Virus record (IMG/VR): IMGVR_UViG_3300029451_000002 | Location: 1-64,000 of that record | Source of the DNA: a virus | DNA length: 64,000 nt | Reading direction: 5' to 3' (one strand) | Shown here: in pieces, positions 5,739 through 21,300 of the stretch | Layout: each line of letters starts with the position of its first letter | How positions within the stretch are numbered: the stretch's first letter is position 1 | Program-made: the position numbers and the translations under genes | Notes under the pieces: model-generated | What the model was told of the DNA's origin: nothing | Databases searched by the model: none | The model's input: the letters and a program-made list of their open reading frames with translations, nothing else

Positions 5739-5999
5739 GTGGAAAAGAATAATGTTTATGTAGAGGTGTTGGCAAAGATTGCCAGCCTCATGGGTAGAAC
5801 AAAGGAGTCTATCCAGATGTCGTCTTCAAATACTCATACGAGTATTACGATGTTTGCTGAAAATAATAGCAAGATTATTGGAAATTGGTATTTTGATGCT
5901 TCCGATAGCAAGGAGTTGGTGGATGCTACTTTCAATGGTCTGAAGGCTTTGGTTGAGTCTCTTGAGCACAATAAGAGCAATGACGGACAAGCAGCGTAA
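5739..5999 (+). CDS. hypothetical protein
   Basis: First ORF after the cassette (GTG start in the track). Confidence 0.4.
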   Translation: MEKNNVYVEVLAKIASLMGRTKESIQMSSSNTHTSITMFAENNSKIIGNWYFDASDSKELVDATFNGLKALVESLEHNKSNDGQAA

Positions 6000-16309: not shown

Positions 16310-17032
16310 GTGATTATGAAGAAGAAAGTGATAATTGCCATCATCGTAGCTATCGTTGTGATAGGTGGCGGAATTGGTGGCTACGTGTACCATTCCAACC
16401 AAGTTAAGGCTGAAAAAATGGCTAATTACAAGAAGGCGTTGTCTGATTATCGCTTCAATAGCAATAGACTAATATATTCTTTGGATTTCGTAGCAACGGA
16501 TTTTGTTATCAATTGGAACTCAGCCATAATGAATAAAAAGGCTATGAACGCAAAGAATGAAATAGTTCCTTGCTCTGATTTTGAAGATGCCGTTTCTTCT
16601 CGATATGCCTTCTATGATAAGTATGGTGCATATAAGATTTTGGATAGTGTGTATGTATCATTAGGAAAGCATTTGGAAAAGATGCGTGTAAATTCTAATG
16701 AAGACCAGCAAAAAATCGTGGAAAGCTGTAGTGATGAATACAAGGAGTTGAATAATGCTATTGTTCTTGTAAAAAAGCCTTATGGCGCATTGGTGCAATA
16801 TTCTAAACAGAAAGGAGACTTGTTCTTTAAACTTTATGCTTTTGATAGCGAATTGGCTAAAGTTTCCCCATTGGAAGAAGATAAGGGCGATGAGAGAACA
16901 AAAGCAATGAATATGGAATTATACGGAACGCATTTGTTTGTTACGGCTGACTTTGACAAAGAACCGCAAAAGGCAAAAAAGCAAAGTTATACGTTTAGTA
17001 ACATTTCAACAAATTGGGTTTATTTGAAATGA
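16310..17032 (+). CDS. membrane-anchored protein (N-terminal TM helix), function unknown
   Basis: KKKVIIAIIVAIVVIGGGIGGYVY hydrophobic anchor. Confidence 0.5.
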   Translation: MIMKKKVIIAIIVAIVVIGGGIGGYVYHSNQVKAEKMANYKKALSDYRFNSNRLIYSLDFVATDFVINWNSAIMNKKAMNAKNEIVPCSDFEDAVSSRYAFYDKYGAYKILDSVYVSLGKHLEKMRVNSNEDQQKIVESCSDEYKELNNAIVLVKKPYGALVQYSKQKGDLFFKLYAFDSELAKVSPLEEDKGDERTKAMNMELYGTHLFVTADFDKEPQKAKKQSYTFSNISTNWVYLK

Positions 17033-17119
17033 TACTTTTATTATAATAATAAGGTGTAATTTTAAAAATAGGTTTTTAAAAGGAAATAAAGTTTAAAAGA
17101 ATAAAGAAATACACTAATT

Positions 17120-17160
17120 AATTTGCTTGTTTCGGAAATTATGCTTACCTTTGCAAACGA
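17120..17160 (+). promoter_or_regulatory. Promoter (TACCTTTG at 17146-17153) for the short repeat-containing transcript
   Basis: -33 TTTG in atttgcttgtttcgg; -7 box TAccTTTG. Confidence 0.5.
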
Positions 17161-17287
17161 AATCAGAAATGGTTTTGTAGCTTCCATATTGCATTCTCTA
17201 CATTAGCGATATTGGTAGCTACGTTTATACATAAGGCAATAGCTTTATAAGCTAGAAGTCATTAAATGAAGTGCAGTGTACAACAGA

Positions 17288-17377
17288 AAAGTGGTGTGAA
17301 GTGTAGTGGAGTGCGGTGAAGTCTAGTGTAGTAGGGTAAAGTGCAGTATGGTATAGTAAAGTATAGTACAGTATAGT
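17288..17377 (+). repeat. Nine in-register tandem 10-bp repeats, consensus AGTRYRGTRN
   Basis: agtggtgtga agtgtagtgg agtgcggtga agtctagtgt agtagggtaa agtgcagtat ggtatagtaa agtatagtac agtatagtga; almost C-free on the plus strand. Confidence 0.85.
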
Positions 17378-17407
17378 GAGCCATCCTTCGGGGTGGCTCT
17401 TTTTTTG
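17378..17407 (+). terminator. Rho-independent terminator (gagccatcc-ttcg-gggtggctc plus T7)
   Basis: Perfect 9-bp stem followed by ttttttt. Confidence 0.75.
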
Positions 17408-17534
17408 TTAATTGAGGTTAATATAACAAAAAAGTTATCCTTTTATTTGCATATATAACAAAAAAGTTATATATTTGCATTGTCTTAAGGACAAAAGAGG
17501 TCTTTTACTTATTTATTAATTTCTTCTATTATAT

Positions 17535-17723
17535 ATGATGAAGACTAGTCAATTAGTGAGAAAGCTGACCCAAGCAGGTTGCTATGTGGTTCGGCATGGT
17601 GGTAATCACGACATTTGGTTTAGTCCAACAACAAAACTTAAATGTCCAGTGCCACGGCACGGCAGTCGTGAAGTTTCTCGAAAGACTTACGACAGTATTC
17701 TTGAAAGATTGCTTGGGCTTTAA
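17535..17723 (+). CDS. hicA: HicA-family mRNA-interferase toxin
   Basis: LVRKLTQAGCYVVRHGGNHDIWFSP...VPRHGSREVSRKTYDSILERLLGL aligns to E. coli HicA (GSNH..., PRH, LGL). Confidence 0.8.
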   Translation: MMKTSQLVRKLTQAGCYVVRHGGNHDIWFSPTTKLKCPVPRHGSREVSRKTYDSILERLLGL

Positions 17724-18383: not shown

Positions 18384-21300
18384 ATGGCAGAATTAAGATT
18401 CGATGTCAAAGCGAATTTCGAGGAGGTTACGAAACTTCGTTCCGAGTGTGAAAAGTTGAGGGCTGAGTTGTTGAAGACCAATAAGTCAACCGACCCAGCT
18501 ATTGTTGCGGATTTGACGGAAAAATATGCGGATGCTAGCAATCGCTTAAAGGATTTAACGCAAGCAGCTTCAAGAGCCGCTTACGTGATGTCTTCTGAGT
18601 TTAATAAGAAGATGCAAGCAGCCGCAAGGGAAGTTTATAGCTATGAACTTCAAATGCAAGCTACCAAAGACCGAATAGAGAAAATCCAACAGCAAATCAC
18701 GAATAAGAGATTAACTCTAGGAGTTACAACGGATAAGTCATCCATAGATTCTTTACAGAAGAATATTGACTATTTAAAAGGCTCTTTGGCAGGTCAAACA
18801 GCTCAGTTGAAGAACTTAGAAGGAGGTGCTGTCGGTGCTCGTCAGACCTTGGAGAATATGCGAAATGAGTATGTTTTGTATGCAGGTTCAGCAAATCCGG
18901 CAAAAGAGGCAACAAATATGTTGACCGATAGCATGAGCCAAATGATAGAACGTATGAAGTCCGCTCCAACTGCCGGAGAGGGTGTGTCTAGCTTGTTCCA
19001 AAGAGTTACTGGCGATGCTCACATGCTTTCGGCAACATTACTTGGTGGTTTAGGATTTGAACAATTAACACGTAGCGTTTTTAATACTCGTTCCCAATTC
19101 CAACAACTTGAAATATCTTTCAATACCATGCTTGGTAGTGCGGATAAGTCCAAACAATTGATGGACGAACTTATCCAAACAGCAGCTCATACACCTTTCG
19201 ATATGTCCAGCATTACGGGTGGCGCAAAACAACTTTTAGCATACGGTACGGAAGCGAAAGATGTTAACAAAACCCTTGTCCAGCTTGGTGACATTGCTTC
19301 GGGCTTGAATATTCCGCTTGGAGACCTTGTTTATCTTTATGGAACGACCGTCTCGCAAGGAAGAATGTTTACAATGGACTTGCGTCAGTTCATGGGCAGA
19401 GGTGTCCCATTAGCAGAAGAATTGGGTAAAATCTTACACCAAAACACAACGGAGGTTCAAGAGTCTGTTTCCAAGGGTAAAGTGACATCAGACATCTTCA
19501 AAGAAGCTATCGCCAACATGACGCAAGCAGGTGGACGCTTCGGAGGCTTGATGGAACAACAATCAAAGACATTGGAGGGTCAGTGGAGTAACATTGGCGA
19601 TTCCATCCAGCAAGCGTTCAATGAAATCGGCAAAAAATCCGAGGGCGTGTTCTCTAGTGGATTGTCAATTATTTCTGCTATGGTAGAGAATTGGCAAGAG
19701 GTAATAAAAGTTATTGGTGTAGCTACAATAGCCGTTGGCTCTTATCGTGCATCATTAATGGCGGCTGCTTCTATTCGCAAAGCTGAGGAAGCGCAACAAG
19801 CCGATGATATGATGAAGGGAATTGATGCAGAAATCAAGCGTTTGCAAGACCTAGAGAACTCAAACTACAAGTCGCTGGGTAAGGACAAAAAGCAAGAGCG
19901 AGTAAGCAAACAACAAGACTTGGCAAGTATTGTTGGAGATACTGCTGTGTCCGATGATTTTGTAAAGGCAAGATTAGATGCAGCAGAGCAAGAGGGCATT
20001 ATTACGGAACAAATGCGTTCTCAATTAGAGATGAAACGTGAACTCTTGCAGGCTCAGCAACAAGCAACAGCACAAAGCCAGATAGAACTTGATGAAGAAA
20101 AGAGGAAGACCGAGGAACTTCGTCAACAAAAAATAGAGTCTCTTAAAGATGATTTGAAGACTACTACGGAGAAAATATCAAATCTTGATGATAGGGATGT
20201 AGAGTTGGCTAGACAATATACATCAGCCTTGAATGATTTGCAAGATGCCCAAGATGCCTTTGCTGAGGCTCAAAAATTGGTTGAGGAAACCGCTGATGGT
20301 GCAAACTTGGCTTTTGACTCCGAGGGTAATGCCGTGAACGCACTAGAAGCAAAGGAACGTTTAGCAACCGCTGCGAAGAAAGTGAATATTGCTCAAACAA
20401 ATGTTTCAACAATTGCAAGTCAGCAAAGAGGAGCTGCGCTTATTCGTGAGCAATTACAAGAGAGACAAGCAACACTACAAACGCAGTTGAATTCTGTTAG
20501 TCAAGCTACCAATACGACTACGAAAAAGGCTAGTACTTTAGCTACGGCTGCTTCAACTGTAAAAAATGCCATCCATACCGCAAGTGTTAAAATAATGACA
20601 ACTGCTGAATTAATGCTTAGTAATGCGGTAAAATCTACAACTATGGCTTTAAAGGGAATGTGGGCTGCTATGCTCGCAAATCCGATTACTGGTATTATAA
20701 CATTGGTAACAACGCTTGCTAGTGCCGTTGCTATGTTCGGAGGTGAAGAGGAAGATATTTCTGTTGACACTAAGCATTTTGGAGATTCTGCTGAAAACAC
20801 AAGGGCGAAAGTTGATGGTTTGCTTAACGTAATGAAGTCTTCTAAGGAAGGAACTGATGCTTACAACAAAGCTAAAGAAGAACTTATCCAAACCTACGAG
20901 CAGTTTGGGATTAAGTGTGATGCCGAAAAGGATAATTTAACAACACTTAAAGGCAAGCATGATGAATTTCTTGCAACTTTACAATTGGAGAATGCTGAAA
21001 GAGAAAAGGCTAATGCTTTAATGTCTGCCACTTCCCAATACACAGAAGCAAGAAACAAAGAAGATGACAATTTTAGCAAAGACTTATCCGGTCATTGGTA
21101 TCAAGGTGGGCAACATGTAGATAAGGAAGATATAACATCAATACAAATGATGTATAATTCCATAGCAACAGATGAGGTTTTAGATAGGTTGGCTAAGTTG
21201 AAGCAAAGAGTAGATGATAGCACATTGTCTTACAAGGAGCATATAGATGCTTTTAATATTTACACAAATGCAGTTAAAAAGACATTTGCGCCTATTGATG

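Follow-up and report, generated by a model that had tools for sequence, protein, structure and literature searches.

The stretch of DNA analysed here, referred to below as the window, comprises 64,000 nucleotides (nt) of a virus (positions 1 to 64,000 of IMG/VR record IMGVR_UViG_3300029451_000002). Between a membrane-protein gene and the genes hicA and hicB, and on the same strand as hicA, lies an intergenic unit made up of a promoter, a leader, a tract of short tandem repeats and a terminator. Based upon the architecture of this unit, the content of the same locus in related phages and the decoding of its variable bases, we propose that 17146-17406 is probably a stand-alone gene for a vrRNA, the guide RNA of the RNA-guided DNA-silencing systems called VIPR, which were described in two 2026 preprints (bioRxiv 10.64898/2026.04.26.720920 and 10.64898/2026.04.26.720927). 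The features of the unit are as follows:

17122-17125, + strand: -33-like TTTG box of a Bacteroidetes-type promoter, read from sequence
17146-17153, + strand: -7 box TAccTTTG of the same promoter, read from sequence
17160-17269, + strand: 5' leader of the putative solo transcript, about 110 nt; the start is approximate, from an inferred transcription start site
17270-17379, + strand: putative vrRNA repeat tract, 22 in-phase pentamers of the form (xGU)+NN, with a motif that is mostly AGU
17378-17399, + strand: 3' tail hairpin GAGCCATCC-TTCG-GGGTGGCTC, 9 bp and GC-rich, overlapping the last repeat unit AGTGA
17400-17406, + strand: U7 tract of a predicted intrinsic terminator, T7 directly 3' of the hairpin

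The transcription unit and its pentamer tract

Promoters of Bacteroides follow the consensus -33 TTTG / -7 TAnnTTTG, and both boxes are present here, with a spacing of 20 nt from the upstream TTTG to the -7 box. Within 17160-17406, a length of about 245 nt, open reading frames are trivial, the longest being 27 amino acids on the + strand and 40 on the - strand. When RNA folding was compared with that of shuffled sequences, the + strand scored z = -4.8 and the - strand z = -1.1, and the leader alone is predicted to form stable hairpins. A search of 16900-17600 against Rfam 15 returned nothing above noise at gathering or permissive thresholds (best E 0.23, on the terminator), and ARAGORN called no tRNA or tmRNA at the locus, its only call in the window being a tRNA cluster at 31974-32409. 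The original prediction, which had been made from the letters of the window, proposed a promoter-to-terminator unit on a + strand poor in C; with the TAccTTTG box, the trivial reading frames and the hairpin followed by T7, the unit was borne out, and the tract is indeed C-poor. Together these features support a stand-alone transcription unit at 17146-17406, which would yield a G/U/A-rich repeat RNA.

The repeats had been described as nine 10-mers filling the last 90 nt before the terminator. The repetition is real, but its period is 5 rather than 10: Tandem Repeats Finder reports periods of 5, 10 and 20 for the tract, and the nine 10-mers are 18 pentamers, each an RGT triplet followed by two free bases (NN). 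The tract also starts earlier than proposed, since four additional in-phase units (AGTGC, AGTGT, ACAAC and AGAAA, at 17270-17289) belong to it, for a total of 22 units at 17270-17379. GU occupies positions 2-3 in 20 of the 22 units, and position 1 of these 20 is A in 16, G in three and U in one. The NN string reads GC GT AC AA GG GA GT GG GC GA CT in units 1-11 and GT AG AA GC AT AT AA AT AC AT GA in units 12-22. Nine overlapping matches to (RGTNN)x8 were found in the window, all of them at 17300-17377 (expected 0.00, from 100 shuffles), and there is no second RGU/NN or GGY/NN array elsewhere in its 64 kb, on either strand.

Only two relatives were found in GenBank, both unannotated contigs from human faecal viromes: MT835610.1 ends at about position 17345 of the window and MT835576.1 starts at about 17363. 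Because both contigs break within the repeat tract, the array, or its heterogeneity, would seem to break short-read assemblies.

One promoter slot and its cargo in related phages

The original prediction could name no element matching the repeat unit, yet the unit matches the vrRNAs of VIPR systems (bioRxiv 10.64898/2026.04.26.720920). Published examples of type II come from Escherichia phage SUSP1 and a Pseudomonas fulva prophage (bioRxiv 10.64898/2026.04.26.720920 and 10.64898/2026.04.26.720927). The effector, Vipr, is a phage-encoded minimal RAMP protein of about 20 kDa that polymerises along vrRNAs, each of which consists of 9-16 YNNGG pentamers (GGY triplets alternating with NN) and a structured 3' tail (VIPR preprints). 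By cryo-electron microscopy, one Vipr protomer occupies each repeat and sequesters G1, G2 and Y3 (VIPR preprint), and the exposed NN pair with double-stranded DNA, such that every third target base, usually the codon wobble position, is skipped (VIPR preprints). The bound filament blocks transcription, and competing phages are silenced in this way; VIPR has been proposed as the ancestor of the CRISPR RAMP effectors (VIPR preprints). Natural targets were called at an NN match of at least 80%, variant repeats of the forms YNNNG and NNNNG occur, and His17 of the SUSP1 Vipr reportedly touches the G1 position of GGY (VIPR preprint).

More than 100 related phage loci were gathered from IMG/VR, both via a neighbouring 240-amino-acid gene and via the promoter plus the first transcribed bases. 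The promoter pattern TACCTTTGCAAACGAWATCAGAAATGG had matches in 116 stretches (distinct sequences), and their downstream content was then classified:

Solo A (the type in the window): 53 of 116 distinct sequences
Solo B: 4 of 116; an unrelated leader and different NN, with the same xGU frame and tail
Vipr-200: 37 of 116; a 200-amino-acid gene, one or two arrays and a gene of 153-155 amino acids
Vipr-190: 20 of 116; a 190-amino-acid paralogue, with arrays on either side of the second gene
Deletion remnants: 2 of 116

What the relatives have in common is the promoter and the first ~29 transcribed nt, which drive either a solo unit or a full vipr-vrRNA-vap cassette. Thus, the unit occupies the promoter slot at which relatives carry vipr, vap and vrRNAs, and solo A is the commonest state of that slot. 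Homologues of both SUSP1 proteins are encoded at this locus in relatives (Vipr at 32% identity and Vap1 at 25%). The leaders of solo A and solo B share their first 29 nt only, and a search of the collected loci for sequence homologous to the leader at 17160-17269 found none. The minimum free energy fold contains a long-range pairing between leader (17184-17201) and array (17328-17351); we do not claim it as a structure, because the solo B leader folds alone and does not reproduce it.

As to whether related phages keep the repeat array, a question that the original prediction had posed, the pentamer frame and the GU are retained and the NN are hypervariable, with 25 distinct arrays in 69 loci and 52 distinct arrays overall. 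The solo A array itself is nearly invariant. Across 48 solo A loci, identity is 99.9% for the leader and 99.7% for the array, compared with 89% for the upstream intergenic sequence and about 97.5% for the flanking genes. In most solo A loci the hicA allele differs, yet the unit is 99.7-99.9% identical.

The original prediction placed the unit immediately upstream of hicAB, which is true of the window but incidental. Presence or absence of hicAB is independent of cargo type: in L010-L012 hicAB is missing and the solo unit directly precedes the tape-measure gene, and hicAB is also found behind full VIPR cassettes while being absent from five Vipr-200 loci. Upstream of hicA, at 17421-17480, are two direct repeats of about 30 bp, each containing the palindrome ATATAAC-N6-GTTATAT overlapping a TAnnTTTG-like box. 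Judged by their sequence, these are probably the hicAB promoter with HicB operators, and hicAB would therefore form a transcription unit of its own.

No vipr gene was detected in the window, either by tblastn (best E 1.2) or with a hidden Markov model of the family run over 326 six-frame open reading frames (best E 0.15), nor was a vap gene, using tblastn with the vap of relatives (best E 0.08), although vipr and a Vap1 homologue are present in relatives at the same promoter. Nor did any of 51 other solo-unit contigs, many of them 63-130 kb long, occur among the best 80 Vipr-encoding contigs of IMG/VR. On these searches, neither the phage in the window nor the 51 other solo contigs encode a recognisable Vipr.

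The solo unit nevertheless looks matched to one Vipr in particular, Vipr-190, because its motif usage and its tail both agree with the terminal vrRNA of Vipr-190 loci. AGU makes up 76% of motifs in solo arrays and 68% in Vipr-190 arrays, where GGU accounts for 5%, whereas Vipr-200 arrays are 61% GGU. The tail found in the window is also the end (…AGTAAAGTGAGCCATCCTTCGGGGTGGCTC-T6) of the terminal vrRNA that follows vap in Vipr-190 loci L210 and L270; the last unit, the hairpin tail and the sequence downstream are all the same there. In an alignment of the proteins, residue 17 is His in SUSP1 and in Vipr-200 (L005:5046-5645) and Asn in Vipr-190 (L210 and L270). Together with GGU-rich versus AGU-rich arrays, this change looks like co-variation of protein and RNA, as a correlation only.

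Several further variants were seen among the relatives. Within the first 400 nt past the shared promoter, L194 and L234 retain of vipr just the final ~44 codons, and then have a single array rich in GGU and a tRNA-like minihelix; the tape-measure gene follows the minihelix, and vap and hicAB are absent. These deletion derivatives of a VIPR cassette show a route to effector-less arrays. A solo-B-like variant (L040:4958-5060) has a 60-nt deletion in its array, and its terminator hairpin is exactly reverse-complemented (GAGCCACCCCGAAGGATGGCTC) relative to the usual form. In full VIPR loci, arrays are flanked by tRNA-like minihelices (L005:5753-5808; L014:5740-5800 and 5915-5965), which also occur on both sides of array 1 in L210 and on the - strand in L185. 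Each has a 7-bp acceptor-like stem, a linker of about 11 nt (ATGGTGNTNNT) and a T-arm with a GTTCGAWTC loop, and compensatory changes between lineages are seen in 10 of 11 pairs. The minihelices are probably processing signals for RNase P and RNase Z. The VIPR preprint mentions hammerhead-interspersed and staggered arrays, and the word 'tRNA' is absent from its main text.

Long series of degenerate GGTNN arrays were also found in many unrelated viral contigs of IMG/VR (L189, L079, L083, L087, L175 and L188), with lineage-specific punctuation such as GGCTAATGGGT or GGAATGGTTTAATGAATTTAATT; L189 has more than 25 arrays across about 10 kb. These presumably represent other VIPR types. Elsewhere in the window, one of the five clustered tRNAs at 31974-32409 (32260-32334) was assigned a four-base anticodon (tggt) by ARAGORN and scored 57 bits against the Rfam tRNA family; this may reflect either a tRNA resembling frameshift suppressors or an error in calling the anticodon loop.

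Predicted targets of the putative guide in rivals, and of rival guides in this phage

To decode the guide, we applied the published rule of a 1-nt skip between successive NN and compared the NN string of the window with about 5 Mb of collected sequence on both strands. With the 18-unit guide, the best match (31/36) was in the tape-measure gene of related phages, in frame and with codon position 3 skipped. Guides with shuffled unit order reached 23.7±0.7, and skips of 0 or 2 nt reached 23. The four upstream units, which had been left out of this search, gave a further 7-8 of 8 matches at the same target. The complete 22-unit guide matches at 36-39 of 44 positions (82-89%) in the rival tape-measure allele AVT[DK]G[KE]VGADLVK…, against 27.7±0.86 for unit-order shuffles (maximum 30) and at most 26 for skips of 0 or 2. 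At the target in L208 the first 12 guide units match perfectly, and a natural guide variant of the L003 type, with CT changed to TT, gives a better match. Within the window, the best site is the homologous segment of its own tape-measure gene, at 29/44 NN (66%), which is below the 80% threshold. Thus, the NN of the guide decode to the tape-measure allele of rivals and not to the phage's own allele. Most solo A loci have the non-target allele; target-like alleles, counted by sequence type, number seven in Vipr-190, five in Vipr-200, three in solo B and four in solo A, counts that are not phylogenetically independent.

Solo B, with its different guide, points to a different gene. Its units 6-21 match codons 25-45 of the Vipr-190 gene of L270 at 29/32, where the null is 23.5±0.8.

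The predicted targeting between the two tape-measure alleles is reciprocal. Three sites in the 5' part of the tape-measure gene in the window match guides of VIPR-carrying relatives at 90-94% NN, and family-wide the guides converge on the promoter and 5' region of the tape-measure gene, which directly follow the VIPR slot. The relevant segments of the window are:

18384-18431, + strand: start of the tape-measure gene, MAELRFDVKANFEEVT; guide 1 of L004, L068 and L191 (Vipr-200) is predicted to target it (30/32 NN, in frame)
18609-18659, + strand: tape-measure segment KMQAAAREVYSYELQMQ; the terminal guide with a hairpin tail in Vipr-190 loci L197, L210 and L244 is predicted to target it (31-32/34 NN)
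19341-19385, + strand: tape-measure segment GTTVSQGRMFTMDLR; guide 2 of L033 is predicted to target it (27/30 NN)
19464-19529, + strand: tape-measure segment SVSKGKVTSDIFKEAIANMTQA, homologous to the rival target; not a predicted target

Interpretation and comparison with known systems

That the unit is an element of the vrRNA type is well supported, and we regard it as probable. Its mode of action is a more tentative matter. The RNA would be made and trimmed to about 130 nt, and would act only when a rival, co-infecting or resident, provides a protein of the Vipr-190 type in trans. Loaded into this protein, it would direct the filament to the rival's own tape-measure gene, so that this gene and the tail genes downstream of it would be silenced. 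Such a role as a trans-loaded guide strikes us as a possibility that comes close to an even prospect without quite reaching it. Solo B would analogously direct the rival Vipr-190 to the rival's own vipr gene, and the RNA in the window may also compete with those rival guides that target this phage's tape-measure gene. We put forward the full hijack, in which trans-loading, dilution of rival guides and the attack of solo B on vipr are combined, with corresponding reserve, as a hypothesis that is somewhat more likely to be wrong than right.

Several observations weigh against reading the unit as a guide gene. With regard to the RNA itself, GU is missing from two internal units, there are 22 units where published vrRNAs have 9-16, and the motif is AGU instead of GGY, while the SUSP1 Vipr reads G1 specifically. 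With regard to the effector, none is encoded, so activity would need supply in trans, and the two lists of solo-unit and Vipr contigs that were compared have no IMG/VR sample identifier in common. With regard to the target, even the best match is imperfect, at 82-89%. A pattern for a better, hybrid-allele target had no matches in IMG/VR, and a pattern for the 3' half had 13 matches in JGI metagenomes, all at chance level over the full guide (24-27/36). Finally, target-like alleles are present in cis in four solo A loci (L016, L031, L058 and L276), where they match at 30-31/36.

Two alternatives accept that the RNA derives from the VIPR family. One is that it is a pure decoy, which soaks up rival Vipr protomers (up to 22 per molecule) and thereby protects the phage's own tape-measure gene; the NN sequence would then not matter, and the RNA would be an anti-VIPR analogous to the RNA anti-CRISPRs. 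This would suit a phage that has no vipr, whose tape-measure gene is predicted to be targeted at three sites by guides of relatives, and whose RNA has its own consensus promoter together with a motif and tail matching those of a rival vrRNA. Yet the NN are not arbitrary, matching the rival allele far above the shuffle null, and the independent solo B matches a rival vipr gene, for which a pure sponge has no need. We therefore consider a pure decoy unlikely, though the decoy and guide roles are not mutually exclusive. The suggestion in the original prediction that a repeat RNA might bind protein thus survives in part, as each repeat is a protein site on the RNA in the VIPR family, while its protein sponge is only a rival reading. 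The other alternative is that the unit is a relic: vipr and vap would have been deleted from a VIPR locus, and its terminal vrRNA would have survived, perhaps transcribed but without function. Deletion derivatives such as L194 and L234 exist, the terminal vrRNA of Vipr-190 loci has homology to the unit in its tail and in the sequence beyond, and the few solo phages with target-like alleles in cis would be expected if targeting were inactive. A relic would not be expected to keep promoter, terminator and 20 of 22 GU motifs intact, to be more conserved than the neighbouring protein genes or to be the commonest state at the locus (53 of 116 distinct sequences). Moreover, the leader of about 110 nt is not left over from a vipr-vap cassette, and solo B, whose leader and guide are unrelated, shares the architecture and has a significant target, all of which makes decay a distinctly unlikely explanation.

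The remaining alternatives look elsewhere for the partner of the unit. An effector could be encoded in cis elsewhere in the phage, or in the host, as a very divergent Vipr or another RNA-binding protein. RAMP proteins do diverge past sequence recognition (VIPR preprint), and the window, which has no terminal redundancy and was searched for vipr by sequence comparison, may be an incomplete genome. We nonetheless find this improbable: wherever relatives have a vipr gene it lies at this very locus, the window contains no other RGU/NN or GGY/NN array and was negative with the family model, and the best 80 Vipr-encoding contigs include no member of the solo set of 51. The original prediction suggested phased protein-binding sites on one face of the DNA helix, such as iterons, partition sites or an operator array. 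The tract is intergenic and the 10-mers are in register, but at a period of 5, or half a helical turn, successive sites would lie on opposite faces in turn. The conserved part is a strand-specific motif of 2-3 nt with free spacers rather than a binding consensus, and the variable positions decode to coding sequence; promoter and terminator bracket the tract on one strand, the folding signal is confined to the + strand (z = -4.8 versus -1.1), equivalent arrays in relatives are punctuated by probable RNA-processing elements (the tRNA-like minihelices), and the neighbours are a membrane protein and hicAB, with no rep or par gene alongside. Taken together, this makes sites acting at the DNA level very improbable. 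Least credible of all is the further proposal of a type-III-like RNA antitoxin or regulator of HicA. The arrangement does resemble ToxIN-type loci, the unit lying 128 nt upstream of hicA on the same strand with a terminator in between. However, hicA (Pfam HicA_toxin, E 1.3e-12) has a protein partner in hicB just downstream, and the repeats at 17421-17480 would give hicAB a promoter and operators of its own. Unit and hicAB also occur separately, the unit in L010-L012 and hicAB in full VIPR loci; the hicA allele varies in most solo A loci around a unit that stays 99.7-99.9% identical; and the repeat is 5 nt rather than about 36 nt. Other candidates were dropped since the RAMP neighbour and the NN decoding explain the pattern. 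These were G-quadruplexes, antisense-strand Rho-utilisation sites, the template of a retron or DRT, and a site for a TRAP-like ring protein, in which triplets are spaced at 5 nt.

If the hijack is true, it would represent effector hijacking by RNA alone in phage-phage conflict, and VIPR guides would be exchangeable in trans between genomes in nature. The relatives provide a population-scale view, in human-gut phages of Bacteroidetes type, of a slot just upstream of the tape-measure gene that alternates between cassette and guide-only states. Guide-only loci raise the testable question of whether vrRNAs are loaded in trans by a competitor's Vipr, as hijack or as decoy. The answer matters for the way VIPR conflicts play out and for engineering in which guides are supplied apart from the effector. 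The AGU-reading variant and the tRNA-like array punctuation should be useful for understanding motif recognition and guide processing.

Among known systems, type III antitoxin RNAs consist of repeats of about 34-36 nt that are cut by the adjacent toxin. Like a ToxI locus, the unit closely precedes a toxin gene and encodes a repetitive noncoding RNA that ends in a terminator; unlike one, it has a repeat of 5 nt, not about 36 nt, and is independent of the neighbouring toxin, HicA already having HicB. A functional parallel may be found in virus-borne mini-CRISPR or orphan arrays, which rely on Cas machinery encoded elsewhere. They too are guide-only viral loci aimed at close relatives, with an effector presumably coming from another genome. 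They differ in that their spacers are contiguous, whereas the unit has a non-contiguous NN code and no repeat-spacer-repeat arrangement, and in that their effector comes from the host, whereas that of the unit would come from a rival virus. RNA anti-CRISPRs (Racr) are phage-encoded solitary mimics of CRISPR repeats that sequester Cas proteins. The RNA in the window, likewise small, noncoding and phage-encoded, imitates a guide in its protein-binding part, by which an opponent's effector could be titrated; Racr, however, have no targeting information, while this RNA has a significant predicted target, and the opponent here would be a phage rather than the host.

The closest likeness is to the vrRNAs of VIPR themselves. 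Both are phage-encoded tandem pentamers in which a fixed triplet alternates with hypervariable NN, both end in a 3' tail, which in the unit is a conserved hairpin, and in both the NN decode, by a 1-nt skip, to coding sequence of a competitor phage with the wobble position skipped and with no self-target. The differences are that the unit has no adjoining vipr or vap and none elsewhere in the window; that its motif is AGU/RGU (YNNRG) and not GGY, in 22 units and not 9-16; that its tail is a simple hairpin terminator and not a pseudoknot; and that it has its own promoter and a conserved leader of about 110 nt. The preprint mentions satellites that 'encode their own vrRNAs' as well as single-vrRNA systems; in the portion of its text that was accessible, it describes neither effector-less guide genes in full-size phages nor guide-only genes aimed at effector-bearing rivals. 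Thus, the kind of element is known from the VIPR preprints, and the effector-less configuration with its own promoter is a variant of it, set apart by the AGU motif, the terminator-hairpin tail and its place as the commonest state at a hot-spot where it alternates with full systems.

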